Shown: one piece after another, positions 4,690-14,233 of the stretch
Layout: each line of letters begins with the position of its first letter
How positions within the stretch are numbered: the stretch's first letter is position 1
Assembly (NCBI GenBank): GCA_963790305.1
Contig: CAWBOC010000010.1
Coordinates: 128,001-192,000 of the forward strand
DNA length: 64,000 nucleotides
Source: an uncultured Gemmatimonadaceae bacterium
GTDB lineage: Bacteria; Gemmatimonadota; Gemmatimonadetes; Gemmatimonadales; Gemmatimonadaceae
Reading direction: 5' to 3'
Program-made: the position numbers and the translations under genes
Notes under the pieces: model-generated
Told to the model about the DNA's origin: nothing
The model's input: the letters and a program-made list of their open reading frames with translations, nothing else
Database searches by the model: none

Positions 4690-4724
4690 GGGGTCCGGAA
4701 ATGCAAGCCCTGCGCCCAAGAAAA

Positions 4725-4810
4725 TGAGGCGCTAGAGGCGCTAGAAGCGCTAAAGGCGCTGGAGGATAACCCCCAGCGCCTCTAGCGCCTCTAGCGCCTC
4801 TAGCGCCTCA
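4725..4810. repeat. Palindromic element of tandem 9-mers (GGCGCTAGA)n...(TCTAGCGCC)n
   Basis: Four units on each arm form an inverted repeat between rho and tamA. Confidence 0.9.
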
Positions 4811-4814
4811 GCCG

Positions 4815-6302
4815 TTACAGCCCCGCGAGCAGCGCGTCGTTCCCCGCCGTGCCGGCGATGCGCTTGATCAACCACTCCATCGCCGACTGCGGCGGCATCT
4901 GTTGGAGACCGCGGCGCAGCGTGTAGACGTTGTCCAGCTGATCCGGACGGAAGAGCTTCTCCTCGCGCCGCGTTCCACTCGTCGCGATGTCGATCGACGG
5001 GAAGATACGCTTCTCGGACAGTGACCGATCGAGCTTGATCTCGGAGTTGCCAGTCCCCTTGAACTCCTCGAAGATCACGTCATCCATGCGCGAGCCCGTC
5101 TCGACGAGCGCGGTGGCGATGATCGTCAGCGAACCGCCGCCGTGCTGCGGTGCCACCGAGCGCGCCGATCCGAAGAAGGCCTTCGGGCGCGCCATGGCCG
5201 TCGCGTCGAGACCCCCTGAGAGGGTGCGACCGGTGCCACGCTCCACCGTATTGTGTGCCCGCGCGAGCCGCGTCAACGAGTCGAGCACGATCACGACGTC
5301 CTTGCCATTCTCCACCAGCCGGCGCGCGTGCTCCAGTGTCATCTCCGCGACATCGACGTGTCGCTCGGCGGGCTGATCGAAGCTCGACGCGATCACCTCA
5401 CCGCGCCCCCACTCGATCATCTCGCTGACTTCCTCGGGGCGCTCATCGACCAGCAACACCAGCAGCGTCGCCGTCGGATGATTGATGGCCACACCCTCCG
5501 TGATCGCCTGCAGCAGCATCGTCTTTCCGGCACGCGCAGGCGCAACGATCAGCGCGCGTTGGCCGAACCCGATCGGCGCGATGAGGTCGATGGCGCGCCG
5601 CGTGAGCTCTGGGCCCCCCTTCGCGGGCTTGCCCGTCTCGAGGACGAGTTTGCGCTCCGGATAGGACGCGACGAGCGACGAGAATTCCGGCCGGCGCAGT
5701 GCCAACGTGGGATCGTCACCATTGATCGTCCGCACCTCGGCCACCGCCATACGTCCGCGATGGTCGCGACCGACCGTCGCGTTCACCATGTCGCCGCGGC
5801 GAAGGCCGAGCTGCCTGACGAGGTGCGGCGGCACGAAGGCATCGGCGGGGGTGGGGAGATAACTCTCCGCCGCCCGGCGAATGAAGCCGCCGTCGCGTGA
5901 CGGGTCGAACCATCCTTCCGCATCGCCCTCGGCGACAATGACCGCTGGCACCGGAGCGCCGCCGCCATGCTCGGGGCGAGGACCGCCGCGTCCGCGACCG
6001 CGTCGTCCACGCCGTCCATTCTGACCAAATCGATCACGCCCACCCTGGTGCTGCGGTTGCTGACCGGGATGTCGCGTCGGAGGGGGACCGCCCGGCGTGG
6101 GGACGTTCTCACTCGACGGAATGCTAGGCGGCGCGGTCGGAGCGGGCGTGCCATTGTCGCGCTCCGGCGTATCGCCGTCCGGTAGCGCTGACGCGTCGTC
6201 ACGGTAGGGATTCACTTCCATGTCATTGGCCTCGAAGGTGGGACGAGGCTGCGCTGGGCGCGGGCCGCGCCCACGACGGGGCGGGCGTCTGCGTTCGTTC
6301 AT
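4815..6302 (-). CDS. rho: Transcription termination factor Rho with a low-complexity N-terminal extension
   Basis: DLIAPIGFGQRALIVAPARAGKT, LLVDERPEEV, DSLTRLARAHN and FEEFKGTGNSE. Start taken at MNERRRPPRR (ATG 6302). Confidence 0.95.
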   Translation of the reverse strand: MNERRRPPRRGRGPRPAQPRPTFEANDMEVNPYRDDASALPDGDTPERDNGTPAPTAPPSIPSSENVPTPGGPPPTRHPGQQPQHQGGRDRFGQNGRRGRRGRGRGGPRPEHGGGAPVPAVIVAEGDAEGWFDPSRDGGFIRRAAESYLPTPADAFVPPHLVRQLGLRRGDMVNATVGRDHRGRMAVAEVRTINGDDPTLALRRPEFSSLVASYPERKLVLETGKPAKGGPELTRRAIDLIAPIGFGQRALIVAPARAGKTMLLQAITEGVAINHPTATLLVLLVDERPEEVSEMIEWGRGEVIASSFDQPAERHVDVAEMTLEHARRLVENGKDVVIVLDSLTRLARAHNTVERGTGRTLSGGLDATAMARPKAFFGSARSVAPQHGGGSLTIIATALVETGSRMDDVIFEEFKGTGNSEIKLDRSLSEKRIFPSIDIATSGTRREEKLFRPDQLDNVYTLRRGLQQMPPQSAMEWLIKRIAGTAGNDALLAGL

Positions 6303-6688
6303 GCAACCATGTGTGTCGTGGTGAATTCTCGGTGGACACGTCCATGCGGATCGTGTCCCGTACTTCCTATGGAGCTTGTCGTGAGCGCGCCGCTGCACGC
6401 GGCTGTTCCAGTCGCTCTGGTGCATGGCCGTCATGGCGACGCACCGGTCCTGCTTCCGTGCTGTTGTCGACGACGTCGCGGAACCACGGACAACTCACGC
6501 GCTTCCGGCGCTTGCTCAGCGCAACCCGAGCGGCTCCGCGCCTGCCGTGCGGCGCTGCTCGTCCACTTTGGGATGGCCGACGCGCACCGGCGGGTCAGCC
6601 ACCACCAACTTCACTTCCCAGGTCGATTTACGCAACTGCCAGCTTCCGGGCCCTCTCCAGGGGCGAGAAGTGTGCCCAAGGCACCCCC

Positions 6689-6928
6689 TCATTCCTCCTT
6701 CTCCCTCAACGCGTCGAGCTTTCGGGAAGACGCAATCACGCGCCTGGCGAGATCGACGATACGTCTCACCGAGTCTCGCTGCTCCTCGTTGAGAGTGGCG
6801 TCGAGCTCCAGGAGCTGCGATTCCGCCAGCAGCGCGGCGAGTGGGTTGTTCATCTCGTGCTGCACTCGGCCTACCGCGTTCGATAGCTCCATCACCCGGC
6901 TGGTCTCGCTCAGCTTGTGCTCGCTCAC
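6689..6928 (-). CDS. Stand-alone histidine-kinase dimerisation/phospho-acceptor (HisKA/DHp) protein, 79 aa
   Basis: H-box VQHEMNNPLAALL followed by a second helix. No ATPase or sensor domain. Confidence 0.75.
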   Translation of the reverse strand: MSEHKLSETSRVMELSNAVGRVQHEMNNPLAALLAESQLLELDATLNEEQRDSVRRIVDLARRVIASSRKLDALREKEE

Positions 6929-7040
6929 GCGTCAGGCTCCGGCCGCTTTCGGTCAAGGTCCCCGCACAATGACGACGCATCGTCGCATTCGTCAGTCGAG
7001 GGTGACCTCGGCTGGTGCTTCTGCATAACTTACGCCTTCC

Positions 7041-7628
7041 ATGACACGCGCCGACGTTCACACCGAGATCACCGCCGCCGTCGATGCCTATCGGGAGGAC
7101 GCGAACATCGCCCACCTCCTCGAGCGCATCGAGGACGTCGCGCGTACGGCCGATCCCGACACGCTCGCGTCAGCGGTCGAGCCGTTCCGGGCAATGCCCG
7201 AGGTCGCGGGCCCGGCATATGAGCACATCGTCGCCGCCAAGCCTGACGACGCGCATGCACTGGTGATTCTCGCCAACGCCTACTGGCTCGCGGGCCGCGG
7301 GCCGGAGCACGTCGCGGAGCTCGCCTCCCGCGCCATCGCGGCCGATCCGACGCATCGCGGTGCCTGGCACCTCTGGGCACTGACCGAGAGCGATCTTCGC
7401 TCTCGTGTGAGCCGCTGGCACCAGGTCGCCGAGCGCTTTCCGGGTGACCAGCTCGCTCGCGCGAACCTGGCCGACAACGCGGCCGCACTTGCCTCGACCG
7501 CTCACGATCGTGAGGCACTCGACCTGGCGATTGAGACCTATGGTGGACTGCTGGCCCTGGCCGAGCGGGAGGAGGAGCGTCAGGCGTTGGGGCGCGCGAT
7601 CGAGACTCTGCGAGGATGGCGGTTGTGA
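7041..7628 (+). CDS. Helical TPR-like hypothetical protein
   Basis: TPR-like segments PDDAHALVILANAYWLAG and RAIAADPTHRGAWHLWA. Confidence 0.7.
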   Translation: MTRADVHTEITAAVDAYREDANIAHLLERIEDVARTADPDTLASAVEPFRAMPEVAGPAYEHIVAAKPDDAHALVILANAYWLAGRGPEHVAELASRAIAADPTHRGAWHLWALTESDLRSRVSRWHQVAERFPGDQLARANLADNAAALASTAHDREALDLAIETYGGLLALAEREEERQALGRAIETLRGWRL

Positions 7629-7690
7629 ATGCGGAAGGCGGAATATCGTTGACGGTCAAGAACCTTCCGCATTCCGTATTCCGCTTTCTA
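7626..7690. repeat. Palindromic heptamer element (GCGGAAT family)
   Basis: gaatgcggaaggcggaat ... ccttccgcattccgtattccgc, lying between convergent genes. Confidence 0.75.
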
Positions 7691-7695
7691 CTTAG

Positions 7696-8091
7696 CTACG
7701 CGCTCGCGTCTCTCACTCGCGGCGCCATTTTCGCCAGCTCACCGGTGAGCTCCTGCAGCTCGAACGGTTTGTGAAGCGCCTTGCAGCCGCACGCCTCGAT
7801 GAGCTCGAGCGCGCGCTCACTGGTGTCACCAGTGGTGAAGAGCGTGCGATAGCGCAGGTGCGGCTGGATCGATGCGGCGAGCTCGAACAGCACGTCCCCA
7901 CGCAGGTCGGGGATGCGGAGATCGAGCACGAGGAAGTCGAAGTGTTCAGCGCGGAGGAGCGTGTGGGCCTGCTCGCCAGCCTCGACGGCAATGACGTCAT
8001 AGCCGGCGCGCCCGAGGGCGATCGTCAGCGCACGACAGATCGTCGGTTCATCATCGACCACGAGTACACGCAACCGTTCATTGAACCGCAT
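7696..8091 (-). CDS. Single-domain response regulator (receiver only)
   Basis: RVLVVDDE, LVLDLRIPD (phospho-Asp), FTTG and HKPF. Start MRFNERL overlaps the end of the AraC gene. Confidence 0.9.
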   Translation of the reverse strand: MRFNERLRVLVVDDEPTICRALTIALGRAGYDVIAVEAGEQAHTLLRAEHFDFLVLDLRIPDLRGDVLFELAASIQPHLRYRTLFTTGDTSERALELIEACGCKALHKPFELQELTGELAKMAPRVRDASA

Positions 8092-8875
8092 TCGTTCGCT
8101 CTCCTCGCCGTGCCAGCCGCGCCGTGAGCAGCGCGACGAACTCGTCTGGTGGTACACTTTGCCGCAACGTGGTCGGCGTGAGCCCCGTGGCTGCTCGAAC
8201 CTGCCGTGCGAACAGCCGAGCCGATCCGTAGCCGAGCCGCTCGACCACCTCGTCCAGCGAGCGTCCCGGGTCCTGCATGTAGAAGTACGCGCGCAACAGT
8301 CGCGCGCCCAGCACCAGCATCCTTGCCGAAGCCACTCCGGCGCGTTCGAGCCACCGGTCCAGCGCCCTGCGGTTCATCGCCGCGGCCTTGGCGAGATCGT
8401 TCACATCCCTGAACTGCTGCGGTACCCGAAAGAGCCGCTCGACGGCTCGCGCAAGCTCGGCGGGGACAGTCGCGAGCGGTCGCGCGAGCAATGCGAGCAC
8501 CGCATCACTCATCGCGTACGCCGGCTGCCGCTCCAGGAGATCGCGGAAGCGGCGCGGCTCGTCGTCGAAGTTCCGGAGGACGACGTGCCGCACGCCCAGC
8601 TTTGCCAGCTCGACCGTCGCCCCGAGCGTTTCCGGAGCGAGGATCGTGTAGATCACTACTGGGAGCGAAGGGAAGTCCCGGATCAGACTCCGGAGCTCGT
8701 CCAGTCGCACCGTTCCCTCGGCCCGTGGATCGGCAACGAGCAGATCCACCGGCTTGCGTCGCACTTCGTCCTCGAGCTCATCCCACCGATCGACGGTGAT
8801 GACGTGGTGCTCGCGGCCGAGGACGATTCGCAGGTGGGACAGCAGAAGGGGAGGGAGACGGACGACGACGTTCAC
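8078..8875 (-). CDS. AraC-family regulator with an atypical receiver-like N-terminal domain
   Basis: C-terminal double HTH (VNDLAKAAAMNRRALDR; SLDEVVERLGYGSARLFARQVRAATGLTPTTLR). N-terminal VDLLVADP...PVVIYT resembles a receiver fold. Confidence 0.85.
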   Translation of the reverse strand: MNVVVRLPPLLLSHLRIVLGREHHVITVDRWDELEDEVRRKPVDLLVADPRAEGTVRLDELRSLIRDFPSLPVVIYTILAPETLGATVELAKLGVRHVVLRNFDDEPRRFRDLLERQPAYAMSDAVLALLARPLATVPAELARAVERLFRVPQQFRDVNDLAKAAAMNRRALDRWLERAGVASARMLVLGARLLRAYFYMQDPGRSLDEVVERLGYGSARLFARQVRAATGLTPTTLRQSVPPDEFVALLTARLARRGERTNAVQ

Positions 8876-8901
8876 GCCATCGGATTACGTGTCCTAAAAG
8901 T

Positions 8902-8984
8902 GCACATCGATGTCTCAAGATGTGCGTTTACCGATGGACGCGTAACCGTACCTTGCGTGACAGTTGCAACCCCCCAGTTACAAC
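8902..8984. promoter_or_regulatory. Candidate operator sites in the divergent AraC/peptide intergenic region
   Basis: Inverted repeat GCACATC-N10-GATGTGC (8902-8925) and direct repeat CAGTTGCAAC/CAGTTACAAC (8961-8970, 8975-8984). Confidence 0.45.
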
Positions 8985-9004
8985 TCTTCCCGCGAGGTCA
9001 GATC

Positions 9005-9139
9005 ATGTCCCGCCGCCGCCTCTCTCTCCTGGTGCTCTCCCTCCTGACGTTCGCTGTCGCTGCCTGCGCTGACGTGACTGCGCCGGAACCGAGCAGTGAT
9101 TGCGCGATCACCTCAGGCTCCGCCGGCAAAACCTGCTGA
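9005..9139 (+). CDS. Small exported lipopeptide precursor, 44 aa (MSRRRLSLLVLSLLTFAVAA-CADVTAPEPSSDCAITSGSAGKTC)
   Basis: GAGGT RBS upstream, a basic n-region, a hydrophobic h-region, lipobox VAA-C21, and its own intrinsic terminator. In the ORF track it appears only as the tail of the spurious 8081..9139 ORF. Confidence 0.8.
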   Translation: MSRRRLSLLVLSLLTFAVAACADVTAPEPSSDCAITSGSAGKTC

Positions 9140-9160
9140 CATTAGTTCGTTCCAATCTTC

Positions 9161-9193
9161 AGGCCGCGGACTGCCATCCGCGGCCTTTTTTTT
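9161..9193 (+). terminator. Rho-independent terminator of the lipopeptide gene
   Basis: 10-bp stem AGGCCGCGGA/TCCGCGGCCT with a 6-nt loop and a T8 run. Confidence 0.9.
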
Positions 9194-9198
9194 CAGGG

Positions 9199-10440
9199 CT
9201 ATCCAGCGACTCCGGCCAGCTCGCGCATGCTACGAACCGCGGTTGCCACGCGTTCCACTTCGGGCGTGGGCTCGGGAGCATTCGCGATGATAACCACTCC
9301 CGCCTGGTCGAGCGACTGAAGACTTTGCTCGGCGCGGAAGAGTGCCTGGTTCATCCCGTGGCGCTCCGCCAATTCAACGGCGCGCAGTAACGCAGCTCGC
9401 GCGGCCGAGACGTTGCCGAACATTCGGTAACCCTCGCCAACATAACAGTAGTAGTGACACGCCAGCGTCGCCGGTAACGTCGCGTCCGCAAGCTCACGGC
9501 GATACTGCTCGAATACCGGCTCCCGCCCGTCGACGGCAGCGCATTCCAAGAGGTTGATCGTCGCCACCCAGCGCGTATGCTGCTCCTGAGCAGTGGCAGC
9601 GAGGATCAGATAGGCATCACGCGCGGCGTCGCGCAGTCCCAGCTCGAAGAACGCGGCGGCAATGTCACCCAGCACGCGGTCGCGCGAGGCGGCGTCCGTG
9701 TATCCTTCGAGAGCCTGGTATCCCAGCGTGACAGCGAGGTCGTATTGTCCACGCCGGAACGCGATGTCTGCACGGTCGTGCAGGGCGATCGAGCGGATCT
9801 CGCCACACCGGTTGGCATCTGCCTCGCGGATCGTATCATCGAGAAGCGTTTGCGCGTACGGCAGATTGCCACGCTCGATCGCAATCTTCGCCTCGTTGAC
9901 TCGCGCTCGCAGCACGTTCACGATGTCGCTCGCCATCGCGGCCGCGCACCCCGCACGCGCATACGCCGCCGTCGCTTCATCCCATTCAGCGAGGGTACGG
10001 AGACACGCACCGAGCTGCATGTTCGCGGCGATCACGATGTCGGCTTCCTCGACCGGATGCGCGTGCGCGATCACCGTTTCATGGACGTCGGCCGCCAGCT
10101 CCCAGCGTCCCTCGAACTGGAGCGCCCGACCATAGGCGAGGAGCCGCGGTGCAATCAATGGCACGCGGACCGTTCGTGAGGTTTCCATCGCGTCCACGAT
10201 GCTGGCGAGGATAGACCGTGTCGCCGAACCAAGATCAATGGCTTCGATGGCCTCGCGCACCGCCCGCAGGCCCCACGCGTCGGCCGCGACCACGCTCGGC
10301 CCTTCGACGAGCCATGCATCGAAGAGACGCAACGTGACCAAACCGGCGCTCGTCAGGCGCCAGTCCGCGCTGCCTTCCTCGGCGCGCGCAAGCGCTTCGA
10401 AGAACGGCAGGTGCTGGAGATTGGGCTCGCTCATGGTCAT
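9199..10440 (-). CDS. Tetratricopeptide-repeat (TPR) protein without an obvious DNA-binding domain
   Basis: Repeated TPR-like helices: LLAYGRALQFEGRWELAADVH, QLGACLRTLAEWDEATAAY, ADIAFRRGQYDLAVTLGYQAL and VLGDIAAAFFELGLRDAARDAY. Confidence 0.8.
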   Translation of the reverse strand: MTMSEPNLQHLPFFEALARAEEGSADWRLTSAGLVTLRLFDAWLVEGPSVVAADAWGLRAVREAIEAIDLGSATRSILASIVDAMETSRTVRVPLIAPRLLAYGRALQFEGRWELAADVHETVIAHAHPVEEADIVIAANMQLGACLRTLAEWDEATAAYARAGCAAAMASDIVNVLRARVNEAKIAIERGNLPYAQTLLDDTIREADANRCGEIRSIALHDRADIAFRRGQYDLAVTLGYQALEGYTDAASRDRVLGDIAAAFFELGLRDAARDAYLILAATAQEQHTRWVATINLLECAAVDGREPVFEQYRRELADATLPATLACHYYCYVGEGYRMFGNVSAARAALLRAVELAERHGMNQALFRAEQSLQSLDQAGVVIIANAPEPTPEVERVATAVRSMRELAGVAG

Positions 10441-10734: not shown

Positions 10735-11778
10735 ATGTCCACTTCCGCAGCTTTCGGCGTCCCCGCCGCTCAGACCGCGTCGCCCCTGCGCGGCTGGCAG
10801 ACCACCACCGCACCCTATCGAGCGAGCAGCACCGCTCGGGCCGCGGTTCAGCTCTGCACCACGATCCTGCCACTCGGCGCGCTGGTCGCGCTCATGTACG
10901 CGATGCTCAATGTCTCGTACTGGATAACGCTCGCGCTGGCCGTTCCGGCCGCCGGCTTTCTGGTACGCACGTTCATCATCATGCACGACTGCGGGCACGG
11001 GTCGTTCGTGCCCTCGCGACGCGCCAACGAAGTCATCGGGTTCATCACCGGCGCGATCACGCTCACGCCGTTCGCACAGTGGCGGCGCGACCACGCGCTG
11101 CACCACGCCTCGTCGGGGGACCTTGACCGACGGGGGCATGGCAATGTGCTGACGCTGACCGTCGAGGAGTACCTGGCAAGATCACGGTGGGGACGCCTGA
11201 AGTACCGCCTGTATCGCAACCCGATCACGCTGTTCATCCTCGGGCCGATTTTCCTCCTCTTCGTCCGGCACCTGCCCGCGGCGGGGATCGCGCTGACGAC
11301 GAAAACGAAGATCGAATCCCGCGCCACTACCGCGGCCATCGTGACGATGGTCGTCGGATTCGCACTCGCGATTGGATGGAAGGCCGTGCTCCTCGTCTAC
11401 GGACCGATCATCCTCATCGCCGGCGCGACCGGGAACTGGCTCTTCTACGTACAGCACCAGTTCGAAGATGCGTATTGGGAGGCGCACGAGGGATGGGATT
11501 ACGCCGAGGCCGCGATCAAGGGCGCGTCCTATTACCGGCTGCCGCGCGTCCTCGAGTGGATGACCGGGCGCATCGGGCTGCACCACGTCCATCACCTCGA
11601 CCCGAAGATCCCCAACTATCATCTGCGGCGTTGCCATGATGAGAACGGGGTGCTTCAGGCGGTGACCGTGCTCACGATTCGCGAAAGCATCCGGACGGCG
11701 TCGTTGAAGCTGTGGGACCCCGAGCATCGCCGCATGGTCGGTTTCCGCGCGCTGCGATCGCGCCGCGCGGCCGCGTAG
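10735..11778 (+). CDS. Membrane fatty-acid (acyl-lipid) desaturase, Bacillus Des-like
   Basis: Three His boxes (HDCGH, HALHH, HHVHH) plus WLFYVQHQFE and KIPNYHL. Confidence 0.92.
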   Translation: MSTSAAFGVPAAQTASPLRGWQTTTAPYRASSTARAAVQLCTTILPLGALVALMYAMLNVSYWITLALAVPAAGFLVRTFIIMHDCGHGSFVPSRRANEVIGFITGAITLTPFAQWRRDHALHHASSGDLDRRGHGNVLTLTVEEYLARSRWGRLKYRLYRNPITLFILGPIFLLFVRHLPAAGIALTTKTKIESRATTAAIVTMVVGFALAIGWKAVLLVYGPIILIAGATGNWLFYVQHQFEDAYWEAHEGWDYAEAAIKGASYYRLPRVLEWMTGRIGLHHVHHLDPKIPNYHLRRCHDENGVLQAVTVLTIRESIRTASLKLWDPEHRRMVGFRALRSRRAAA

Positions 11779-13116: not shown

Positions 13117-14196
13117 TCACGGTGCGGACGGCGCCCGGCCGTCCGCACCGGCGTTCGCCGCCAGCACGCGTGGCGACGCAACCGTACGCGCATCACCGTC
13201 CGACACATAGCGACGCCCCGGCTTTTCCAGCCAGTCCAGCGTGCGCTCCAGCGAGTTCCCCACGATCTGCACGCGTTCCAGCTTCAACGCATTGAACGCA
13301 GGATCGAATGGACTCGGCACCGGTCCGCCGGCCACGAGGAGCACCGCGGTGTGGTCATAGGCAACGGTGCGCTGCGAGCGCCCGTCCGTCCACGACCCCT
13401 TCGCGGCCAGCGCCTCATTCTTCGGCCACAGGCCTAACGGCAGCGCCAGCGTGCGGACCCGGTACCCCGGTACCGCCGAGTCGACGGCCAGCGCAAGGCG
13501 CGCAATCTGCTCCTGGACGACGGCATCGTCGTACTTCGACAGCTGCGCGTGCCAGAGCGTGTGGTTGCACAGCTCGAAGCCGCGCTCGGCGAGAAACTTG
13601 AGCTTCGCATGACGCCAGGCTGTTTTCTGCCCCTCGATGTTCCGATCGCCGAAGAACGCGCGCCCAGCCTCGGCGCCCGAGAGCATACAGAACGTCGCCT
13701 TGCTCTCCCAATCGGGGTGTGCCTTCTGAAAATCCAGCCAGATCCCGACCGCGCTCGTCGAATCGATCACGAGCTCGCCGTTGCGTTCGATGTAGCGAAA
13801 CTGTGAGGGCGACGCGTCGTCGAAGGTGAACACCACCGGAGAGAGGCCCCGCGGGAGATCGATGCGCCGGTCGACCAGCTCAGCCACGGTGATCGGGCGG
13901 TAGCCACGTTCGTAGAGGAGCTCCAGGTCGCGGCGGAAGCGCGTGTGCTCGCGCTCCCAGCGGCCTTCAGTGGCGCCGATGAGATGGTATTCGAGGATGG
14001 GGATCCGCCCCAGCTCATTCGGCACCCGGTTTCGCGACGCCGAGTCGAGGGCAACCATCGCACGGGCTGCCGCCATCTCATTGGATGGCGCATCCGGCGC
14101 GTCGTTCGGGCGGGCTTCTGTTCTGCTGCATCCCGATGCGAAGAGGGCAATCGGGAGAACGGCGGCAAGCCGCCGGTACGACGAATATGGATTCAT
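13117..14196 (-). CDS. Polysaccharide deacetylase family lipoprotein
   Basis: Lipobox FASG-C, IPILEYH, VVFTFDDA and ELCNHTLWH. Confidence 0.85.
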   Translation of the reverse strand: MNPYSSYRRLAAVLPIALFASGCSRTEARPNDAPDAPSNEMAAARAMVALDSASRNRVPNELGRIPILEYHLIGATEGRWEREHTRFRRDLELLYERGYRPITVAELVDRRIDLPRGLSPVVFTFDDASPSQFRYIERNGELVIDSTSAVGIWLDFQKAHPDWESKATFCMLSGAEAGRAFFGDRNIEGQKTAWRHAKLKFLAERGFELCNHTLWHAQLSKYDDAVVQEQIARLALAVDSAVPGYRVRTLALPLGLWPKNEALAAKGSWTDGRSQRTVAYDHTAVLLVAGGPVPSPFDPAFNALKLERVQIVGNSLERTLDWLEKPGRRYVSDGDARTVASPRVLAANAGADGRAPSAP

Positions 14197-14197
14197 G

Positions 14198-14233
14198 GAG
14201 GCGCTGAAGGCGCTAGAGGCGCTGAAGGCGCTG
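14198..14233. repeat. Single arm of the GGCGCT(A/G)(G/A)A 9-mer repeat
   Basis: gaggcgctgaaggcgctagaggcgctgaaggcgct directly upstream of the deacetylase start. Confidence 0.85.

Follow-up and report, generated by a model that had tools for sequence, protein, structure and literature searches.

Introduction

Quorum sensing by peptides and tetratricopeptide repeat (TPR) receptors is described for Bacillota and their mobile elements in two accounts (PMC10075063, PMC7564271), the first of which assigns peptide signals to Bacillota. Among these RRNPP systems, the Rap-Phr cassettes of Bacillus, plasmids and phages combine a cytoplasmic TPR superhelix of about 360-410 residues, devoid of a helix-turn-helix (HTH) domain, with an adjacent small gene for an exported pro-peptide; they multiply within a genome, each copy with its own peptide, and a response-regulator-type partner lies next door. 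Here we describe a locus with a comparable constellation in the phylum Gemmatimonadota. It lies in a stretch of 64,000 nucleotides from an uncultured Gemmatimonadaceae bacterium (contig CAWBOC010000010.1, positions 128,001 to 192,000), hereafter the window. The core of the cassette is three genes: TPR413, which encodes an HTH-less TPR protein, pep44, a convergent gene for a lipobox-bearing pre-peptide, and AraC265, which encodes a regulator with a receiver-like N-terminal half and an AraC-type DNA-binding half. The initial annotation interpreted the locus as a Rap/Phr-like signalling system. We give a probability of about 0.4 to the view that it is an autoinducing peptide/TPR/AraC circuit that would work like Rap-Phr while standing outside that family.

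Several other described systems share individual parts with this locus. The enterococcal pheromones of PrgX and TraA derive from lipoprotein precursors, the signal being the cleaved signal peptide. The diderm pairs SicA-InvF and IpgC-MxiE join a type III TPR chaperone to an AraC activator, whose activity is coupled to the secreted partner of the TPR protein; type III class II TPR chaperones have three repeats in about 160 residues and bind type III substrates. TPR-like sensor domains control transcription factors, as domain III does in MalT, and extracytoplasmic function (ECF) sigma factors with C-terminal TPR extensions are known.

Linkage of the peptide gene to the TPR gene

Is the small open reading frame (ORF) that converges on TPR413 a gene? 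Lipobox-like ORFs are numerous, a pattern search finding 426 on both strands of the whole 4.3-Mb genome, yet such an ORF occupies this exact place in every related locus that can be checked, which is more than chance would provide. Twenty stretches were fetched around TPR matches and one of them, a 2.3-kb contig with no AraC match (L013), was set aside; the window and the remaining 19 loci all carry a lipobox ORF of 38-50 amino acids (aa), in the same orientation, between the TPR and AraC genes (20/20, or 19/19 if L028, which belongs to a genome flagged as unpublished, is left out). When one genome of each species was scanned, 62 loci emerged, partly overlapping the first set. Four of these end less than 30 nt past the TPR gene and were excluded; in all 58 that have enough flank, a convergent lipobox ORF directly follows the TPR gene. 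The linkage extends to paralogues, since in genomes with several copies (16 loci in 8 genomes) 15 of the 17 TPR genes have a lipobox peptide of their own, and nearly all have their own AraC gene. The association of TPR homologues with small exported peptides, on which the Rap/Phr-like interpretation leaned, is therefore borne out, and it is shared with Rap-Phr.

Nine genus-level copies of pep44 display the codon-position signature of a coding sequence. Within codons 1-21, third positions account for 147 of 207 differences, and 137 codon differences are synonymous against 58 non-synonymous; the corresponding counts are 79 and 22 in codons 22-28, and 48 and 55 in the much less constrained codons 29-33. 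An alignment of 40 peptides leaves R4, A20, C21 and P27 invariant, and the GAGG motif of pep44 sits 7 nt 5' of the ATG. The basic n-region, the hydrophobic core and the lipobox ending in cysteine predict a bacterial lipoprotein. Taken together, the comparisons mark pep44 as a genuine gene that is conserved and linked to that of the TPR protein.

The part that follows the lipobox cysteine has a regular anatomy. It opens with a short linker, x-x-P/V-T-A/G-P (TAP in pep44), continues with a spacer of highly variable length and closes with a C-terminal core of the form hydrophobic-x-hydrophobic-G-S/P/T-G/H. The T-A/G-P linker is not peculiar to these peptides, being found in 11 of the 426 lipobox-like ORFs of the genome, 8 of the 11 longer than 150 aa. 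Two cysteines enclose the core in most peptides, among them pep44, whose variable C-terminal Cys-Cys loop bears a G-S/T-G-like core; in several lineages the core is Cys-less and ends in ...VVGH, ...IGPH or ...VGTG. By this alignment the peptides are not simply hypervariable; they form a family in which a C-terminal motif is conserved while the tether before it varies. A hairpin is visible 3' of the peptide gene in most related loci, and that of pep44 has 10 pairs and a T8 run. Scored as a terminator by a T-run of at least four together with a folding energy of -10 or lower, it qualifies in 17 of 53 distinct downstream sequences, and the terminator scan found one site against a mean of 2.4 in shuffles.

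Conservation and duplication of the cassette

TPR413 has matches in 24 of 41 related genomes, a count that includes the genome of the window. A profile search of sampled Gemmatimonadota genomes recovered the family in 131 of 301 (four flagged as unpublished in this tally), with 44 of 69 in the window's family and 73 of 125 in the sister family; some genomes hold 2-6 matches. The gene order TPR-peptide-AraC is the same in the window and in the 19 loci holding both the TPR and the AraC gene. Where at least 1.2 kb follows the TPR gene, an AraC gene lies no more than 800 bp away on the same strand in 49 of 54 loci. Counts for the wider neighbourhood come from 46 loci in which the sequence extends 3.9 kb or more past the TPR gene, searched by tblastn with the window proteins, so that small or divergent genes may be missed: the AraC gene was detected in 41, the receiver gene REC in 40, TPR195 in 36, HisKA79 in 29 and rho in 27. 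The order TPR-peptide-AraC-receiver is conserved across two families, as the signalling interpretation had required of the relatives.

Like Rap-Phr cassettes, those of Gemmatimonadota multiply within a genome. Paralogous cassettes of one genome have different peptides, in which the C-terminal core is retained, while a receiver gene accompanies at most one cassette per multi-copy genome. For 28 cassettes, a TPR tree from a careful search and an AraC tree from a quick search have nine supported groupings in common, among them G112a with G299a, G297a with G241a, G297b with G241b, and G069a with G273b, which indicates that a cassette is copied and passed on as a unit. In five distant loci the TPR-peptide pair persists with no adjacent AraC gene, which points to the pair as the core.

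Of the proteins compared within the genus, the peptide (66-76% identity) and TPR413 (71-85%) change fastest, ahead of AraC (88-96%), REC (88-98%), rho and the desaturase. Such a difference in rate would be expected of a ligand-receptor pair, yet it is not specific to one.

Candidate operator and promoter

Aligning the peptide/AraC intergenic regions of 44 loci reveals a direct repeat, TGTCCTAAAA-N11-TGTCTCAAGA in the window, which adjoins the peptide promoter and has a period of exactly 21 bp in 43 of the 44. Variants of its half-sites change in concert (TGGCAG/TGGCAG, TGGCAC/TGGCAC, TGTCCC/TGTCCC). The window repeat ends 6 nt 5' of a -35-like TTTACC (8927-8932), which is followed by a 16-nt spacer and a -10-like TACCTT (8949-8954), with the GAGG and ATG about 50 nt further on. 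The hexamers are conserved, and we read them as a putative weak sigma-70-type promoter that would need an activator bound over the flank of the -35 element, the usual arrangement for activators of the AraC family. The tandem direct repeat next to the -35 element of a target, typical of AraC/XylS regulators, is accordingly present as far as sequence can tell, and the repeat at 8890-8920 is most likely the binding site of AraC265.

A strict match to the operator occurs once in the whole genome. The stringent pattern matches in 10 of 21 genomes, eight of which have a single site and two of which (G000 and G011) have two, whereas the reversed pattern, used as a control, has no site. Three loci of the second family carry the same type of repeat, TGTCGCAAAA, with the 21-bp period and in the corresponding position. 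The second operator of G011 is found about 90 nt before the TPR start, behind an additional pseudo-receiver/AraC paralogue that stands 5' of the TPR gene (L048:2627-4010); the TPR gene of this genome itself seems to be under the same control as the peptide gene. In the window, the start codon of AraC265 is 14 nt from the first half-site, so occupancy of the operator should also affect transcription of AraC265. This conserved, genome-unique repeat abutting the peptide promoter speaks for the suggestion that the peptide gene is driven by the AraC regulator.

With a looser repeat pattern, a second site appears in the window's own genome, G000 (contig 5, 344632-344662, minus strand, locus L111; TGTCCGAAAA-N11-TGTCGCAAAA), 5' of the gene for a lipoprotein of about 575 aa that bears a HEYGH zinc-protease-like motif and matches no Pfam family. 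We did not count this gene as a target of the operator, as the seven other genomes of the genus have the cassette site only under the stringent pattern.

The TPR protein

TPR413 has no signal peptide, and a Pfam scan assigns it generic TPR families only and no HTH family. Its model is a TPR superhelix in the size range of the RRNPP receptors (roughly 350-430 residues), and its structural matches to them are tied with those to unrelated TPR proteins. The family is large: of 8000 candidates scored, 732 proteins reach an expectation value (E) of 0.001, those with names being called 'TPR repeat protein' or hypothetical. An exhaustive profile search yielded 695 representative clusters at E 1e-30; almost all of the best 150 representatives have 400-440 residues, and in nearly all of these TPR413 stands alone.

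The AlphaFold model of TPR413 is wholly helical, with 21 helices (predicted local distance difference test, pLDDT, 91; predicted template modelling score 0.84). Helices at its N-terminus (11-87) lead into about seven helix pairs, and a last helix (393-409) comes after a low-confidence linker. The C-terminal helix at residues 388-413 (window 9199-9276, minus strand) is conserved, with the consensus ...REMRELAGVAG, and is placed confidently against the repeats. Judging from the model, it might occupy a binding surface until displaced.

Comparison of the model with known structures gives a tie at Z values of about 24-25 between APPBP2 (25.4), an APC/C subunit (25.0), Rap of pLS20 (24.7), domain III of MalT (23.9), Rap of phi3T (23.9) and NprR (23.3). 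The alignment with Rap of pLS20 is near end-to-end, covering 320 residues (24-363 of the model, 7-362 of the chain). A second fold search, independent of Foldseek and run on 48,161 representative chains, ranked APPBP2 first, MalT domain III second (Z 23.9, root-mean-square deviation 3.6, 302 residues aligned) and Rap of phi105 with its peptide third; further down came Rap of pLS20 (rank 7), AimR (rank 9, Z 19.8), RapH (14), NprR (15), RapI (20) and PlcR (37, Z 15.0). By these models the RRNPP receptors and MalT are the closest bacterial structures to TPR413. Fold scores of repeat proteins reflect shared architecture and are evidence of neither descent nor function. The resemblance to Rap, NprR and PlcR that had been anticipated holds for size and architecture, which are Rap-like, and fails as a distinction from unrelated TPR proteins. 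Rap receptors have no HTH and place an N-terminal helical bundle before the repeats; in TPR413, Pfam finds no HTH family, and the helices at 11-87 precede the repeats, a region compared within the whole-model alignment to Rap of pLS20.

A natural fusion bears on the role of this domain. The exhaustive search found a protein of 644 aa (P0168) in which an ECF sigma factor (Sigma70_r2, r4_2) is N-terminal to a complete TPR413-family domain, in a continuous frame on two metagenome contigs that are 96% identical (L130:2501-4435, plus strand, and L131). In both, a convergent lipobox peptide (...TAVIAGSGT) follows the fusion gene, and in L130 a divergent pseudo-receiver/AraC gene lies beyond the two. 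The fusion agrees with a role of the domain in the contact-dependent control of a transcription factor. Among proteins of 724-2065 residues no fused form of TPR413 appears at E 1e-10, which is weak evidence. Assignment of TPR413 to the LcrH/SycD chaperones was rejected, as the TIGR02552 match has E 0.01 and 15.6 bits against a cut-off of 104.8, and the protein has 413 residues.

The AraC-type regulator and the accessory genes

The N-terminal half of AraC265 has no Pfam match. In the model it adopts the (beta-alpha)5 fold of a receiver (pLDDT 86.7), and Foldseek matches it to FixJ, PorX, RcsB, NarL and isolated receiver domains. Across 14 orthologues this domain keeps D49-P50 only and has neither the acidic pair nor the lysine, so the label 'pseudo-receiver' given to it at first sight was correct. 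This residue pattern makes ordinary phosphorylation of the domain improbable. The C-terminal half is an AraC double HTH, with an HTH_18 match and a template modelling score of 0.69, normalised to the target length, to the DNA-binding domain of AdpA.

REC, whose start overlaps the end of the AraC265 gene by 14 nt, is a canonical receiver: D13, D14, D57 and K108 are invariant in 11 orthologues, and T87 is nearly so. PADLOC returned a generic receiver match only, and anti-phage defence was dropped as an explanation of the locus.

HisKA79 has the H-box HEMNNPL, which keeps the residues that we take to be needed for phosphatase activity, and no ATPase domain. None of the 65 HATPase_c matches of the genome lies within 29 kb of the locus, the nearest being 29 kb and 76 kb off on the contig, in keeping with the original remark that no full sensor kinase is present. 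We therefore rejected HisKA79 as a histidine kinase: it is 79 residues long, the gap to the rho gene measures only 255 nt, and no HATPase_c domain occurs within 29 kb. The nearest ESM Atlas clusters of TPR195 are restricted to Gemmatimonadota and have no Pfam family in common, which marks it as an accessory specific to this phylum. Neither HisKA79 nor TPR195 was detected in the three second-family loci examined, and by their distribution both are accessories found mainly in the window's family.

Genomic context and expression hints

Each of the six ORFs of the originally proposed locus is found in the ORF list at its place, between the rho gene and a fatty-acid desaturase gene (Table 1).

Table 1. 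Features of the locus and of its flanks, with positions counted from the first nucleotide of the window
Feature	Position	Strand	Evidence or remark
rho	4815-6434	-	flank of the locus on the HisKA79 side
HisKA79: stand-alone DHp (HisKA) domain, 79 aa	6689..6928	-	Pfam HisKA 2.3e-8, 34.4 bits, above cut-off
TPR195: small TPR-like protein, 195 aa	7041..7628	+	sub-threshold TPR_16, 7.2e-4
REC: canonical single-domain receiver, 131 aa from ATG	7696..8091	-	Response_reg 1e-15
AraC265: pseudo-receiver + AraC-type regulator, 265 aa	8078..8875	-	HTH_18 2.9e-12, residues 161-239
Candidate operator, TGTCCTAAAA-N11-TGTCTCAAGA direct repeat	8890..8920	+	21-bp period, alignment of 44 loci
Putative peptide promoter	8927..8954	+	reading of conserved columns
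Shine-Dalgarno GAGG of pep44	8994..8997	+	column conserved across 44 aligned intergenic regions
pep44: lipoprotein-type pre-peptide, 44 aa	9005..9139	+	basic n-region, hydrophobic core, lipobox VAAC
Intrinsic terminator of pep44: GC-rich hairpin + T8	9161..9194	+	terminator scan; between two convergent genes
TPR413: cytoplasmic HTH-less TPR protein, 413 aa	9199..10440	-	TPR_12 4.4e-8; converges on pep44
Fatty-acid desaturase gene	10735-11778	+	flank of the locus on the TPR413 side

The genes of TPR413, AraC265 and REC are all on the minus strand. The hairpin between TPR413 and pep44 has its T-run on the plus strand only, so that any read-through from TPR413 would be antisense to pep44 and would then enter the AraC265 gene.

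Three soil metatranscriptome runs from two studies contain contigs at least 90% like REC, AraC, the intergenic region and the peptide ORF, one of them on 8746-9104 and another on 8984-9152. Such contigs are biased to conserved genes, and the near-zero cover of the TPR gene proves nothing; each run holds a small share of the stretch only, so no conclusion on habitat follows.

Four related loci of a distant clade (L090, L091, L096 and L098), one of which does have an AraC gene, carry a long signal-bearing ORF just 5' of the TPR gene. In the two that were scanned it encodes a TonB-dependent receptor with a Plug domain and a sub-threshold STN match, on the same strand as the TPR gene (L091:1332-3857, plus strand; L096:1162-3849, plus strand). 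Nearby downstream there is a gene for a GT87 glycosyltransferase, which in L091, L096 and L098 replaces the AraC gene. The TonB-dependent receptor might let the peptide cross the outer membrane, or its presence may be coincidental.

Two observations concern the surroundings of the locus. Rho (window 4815-6434, minus strand) is 539 residues long; about 170 of these, rich in Arg, Gly and Pro, form an N-terminal extension that precedes the RNA-binding domain, the Pfam match beginning at residue 173. Short intergenic tandem repeats occur at about 4720-4790 and about 14170-14215, coordinates that are approximate and derive from ORF translations; in one frame they translate as ALEALEALEAL and EALKALEALKAL, and they may be copies of a small repeated element.

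Discussion

What could these genes do together? The sequence shows a three-gene unit inherited and duplicated together, with an exported lipobox-bearing mini-protein, an operator dedicated to its promoter, a cytoplasmic TPR protein devoid of a DNA-binding domain and a regulator with a receiver-like domain; the action of these parts on one another is inferred. In the autoinducing circuit that we propose, AraC265, most likely bound to the 21-bp-period repeat, would activate the adjacent pep44 promoter. A C-terminal fragment with the conserved core would then be released and re-enter the cell, where cytoplasmic TPR413 would bind the returned core. TPR413 would act by contact on the pseudo-receiver domain of AraC265, perhaps also on the co-transcribed REC, and its action on AraC265 would close the autoinduction loop. 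Under this proposal the pseudo-receiver needs an input other than phosphorylation, and it is through this domain that TPR413 would act. In the window's family, REC, HisKA79 and TPR195 would make up an accessory phosphoryl-transfer branch, which may carry the output. This is the weakest part of the proposal: REC and the DHp-only HisKA79 could form a phosphotransfer or phosphatase branch, mainly in the window's family.

Several points weigh against the circuit. The lipobox predicts a lipid-anchored product in a cell with two membranes; release by a protease, passage of the outer membrane, import across the inner membrane and reduction of the disulfide all have to be assumed, and the cassette encodes neither a protease nor an importer. 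The three OppA-type binding proteins encoded in the genome and the TonB-dependent receptor of one clade are permissive facts only, which make import possible. The excess of peptide/receptor co-variation that was expected of a ligand and its receptor is missing, given that in 42 non-redundant cassettes the mature-peptide distance correlates equally with the TPR distance (Pearson r 0.641) and the AraC distance (0.639). The distances of peptide, TPR and AraC all track phylogeny, so this comparison is uninformative rather than negative. By mutual information, no TPR column separates the 47 Cys-loop peptides from the 6 Cys-less ones. Specific sequence homology to the RRNPP receptors was sought with a 37-sequence profile against PDB sequences and was not found: no Rap is among the 60 matches listed, and NprR is matched at E 0.011-0.013 over about 100 residues against 2.4e-9 for LGN/Pins, a similarity of the general TPR kind. 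On the model, the fold matches of TPR413 to Rap are tied with those to APPBP2, APC/C subunits and MalT domain III. The hexamers of the putative peptide promoter are weak, with 7 of 12 consensus matches, and are not called by a consensus scan. In the genome pattern searches the operator is unique to the cassette, hence no output regulon is visible. Lastly, the contigs from RNA libraries come from relatives and may include DNA, and as they cannot show strand, ends or level they are a hint only. What stands of the peptide/TPR circuit first suggested for the locus is the TPR-peptide linkage, the gene order, the operator and the Rap-like fold; specific homology to the RRNPP receptors and an excess of co-variation were not found.

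The uniqueness of the operator can be turned into an argument for a different role of the peptide. With the sole conserved operator of the genome located at its promoter, the peptide gene is the one clear target, and the peptide may simply be the output: AraC265 would switch on a small envelope lipoprotein with a periplasmic or surface job of its own, such as modulating an envelope enzyme, adhesion, antagonism or metal binding, and TPR413, sensing a cue other than the peptide, would act on AraC265 as a co-regulator. Neither the lipobox nor the T-A/G-P linker is unusual among the lipoproteins of this genome (linker in 11 of the 426 ORFs), the missing excess of peptide/TPR co-variation would be natural, and nothing would have to be re-imported across two membranes. 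We regard this explanation, the most serious of the alternatives, as less likely than peptide signalling. It leaves the TPR-peptide pair of the five loci with no AraC gene unaccounted for, as it does the private TPR and private AraC genes of almost every paralogous peptide, and a mature product of about 20-40 residues with a conserved core on a variable spacer looks more like a ligand than a folded protein.

The re-import problem also disappears if TPR413 binds the pre-peptide in the cytoplasm before export, in which case free TPR413 would co-activate or inhibit AraC265, and the cassette would gauge how much passes through Sec/lipoprotein export, no signal acting outside the cell. All protein partners would be cytoplasmic, and SicA-InvF and IpgC-MxiE likewise pair a TPR protein with an AraC-family activator; the faint NCBIfam LcrH/SycD match at residues 141-210 (E 0.01, far below the cut-off) points the same way. 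Against this, TPR413 has about nine repeats in its 413 residues where the chaperone has three in about 160, conservation in the ligand falls on the C-terminal core, which would be synthesised last before export, the Cys-Cys loop implies a peptide that works once oxidised, outside the cytoplasm, and no output beyond the peptide gene is apparent. SicA-InvF and IpgC-MxiE also differ in that their partner is a type III substrate, whereas the 44-mer is of the Sec/lipoprotein type, and in that TPR413 is a superhelix. An export-coupled switch appears improbable. Both this switch and the peptide as output explain the private TPR-peptide-AraC triads less well than peptide signalling does. That the genes are mere neighbours with no functional link, the small ORF being no gene, is very unlikely, for although the terminator scan does not exceed the shuffles and the promoter escapes the consensus scan, such a coincidence is hardly compatible with the 58/58 linkage, the co-duplication of whole cassettes, the codon signature and invariant lipobox residues of pep44, and the conserved operator between the divergent genes.

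How, then, does peptide signalling by this cassette relate to the described systems? By its gene content and fold the cassette would work most like Rap-Phr, especially the anti-activator mode of RapF-ComA-PhrF and of Rap of pLS20. We refrain from filing it as a member, as the fold and the adjacent pro-peptide gene are found and specific sequence homology is not. Moreover, the peptide gene is convergent here and lies downstream on the same strand in Rap-Phr; the pro-peptide has a lipobox signal, usually a disulfide loop and a two-membrane host; the partner is a pseudo-receiver/AraC regulator; and the phylum is Gemmatimonadota, not Bacillota. The logic of autoinduction that we propose is also that of NprR-NprX, PlcR-PapR and AimR-AimP, whose TPR sensors are among the structural matches, except that sensing and DNA binding would be split over TPR413 and AraC265, the latter AraC-type and not XRE-type. 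By analogy, the loop would correspond to that of RapF-ComA-PhrF, or to a PlcR/NprR receptor split into two proteins. The cassette shares with PrgX/TraA a lipoprotein precursor, unlike which its cassette-specific conserved part is the C-terminus of the mature lipopeptide. Control of a transcription factor by a TPR-like sensor is common to MalT and, through the natural fusion on two contigs, to the TPR-extended ECF sigma factors; unlike either, TPR413 stands alone in nearly all of its best 150 representatives and is always paired with a peptide gene.

A full-text literature search found no paper linking Gemmatimonadota with such a system, which fits the statement made at the outset that none has been described for this lineage, and the term 'gemmatimonad' is absent from two RRNPP surveys (PMC10075063, PMC9765709). 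We consider the cassette a real, conserved and apparently undescribed regulatory cassette. The broadest form of our interpretation is tentative, somewhat more so than the circuit itself: peptide quorum sensing in Gemmatimonadota, which are diderm soil bacteria, would use a widespread family of lipoprotein-type pheromones, a Rap-like TPR receptor and a pseudo-receiver/AraC activator, arranged in private-channel cassettes, as an analogue of RRNPP signalling that evolved outside Bacillota or diverged there beyond recognition.

If this is true, RRNPP-like logic is not tied to the Gram-positive envelope, and concrete questions arise as to the release and renewed uptake of a lipid-anchored peptide. 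Small as it is, the cassette makes predictions that can be tested directly, for it offers a promoter with an operator, a peptide whose core is conserved and a receptor whose model is confident. Under the rival explanations, too, it would represent a conserved, undescribed way of regulating a tiny lipoprotein, present in 131 of the 301 sampled genomes of the phylum; and if the signalling interpretation is correct, it would offer a first handle on cell-cell signalling in Gemmatimonadota, a phylum known mostly from metagenomes.

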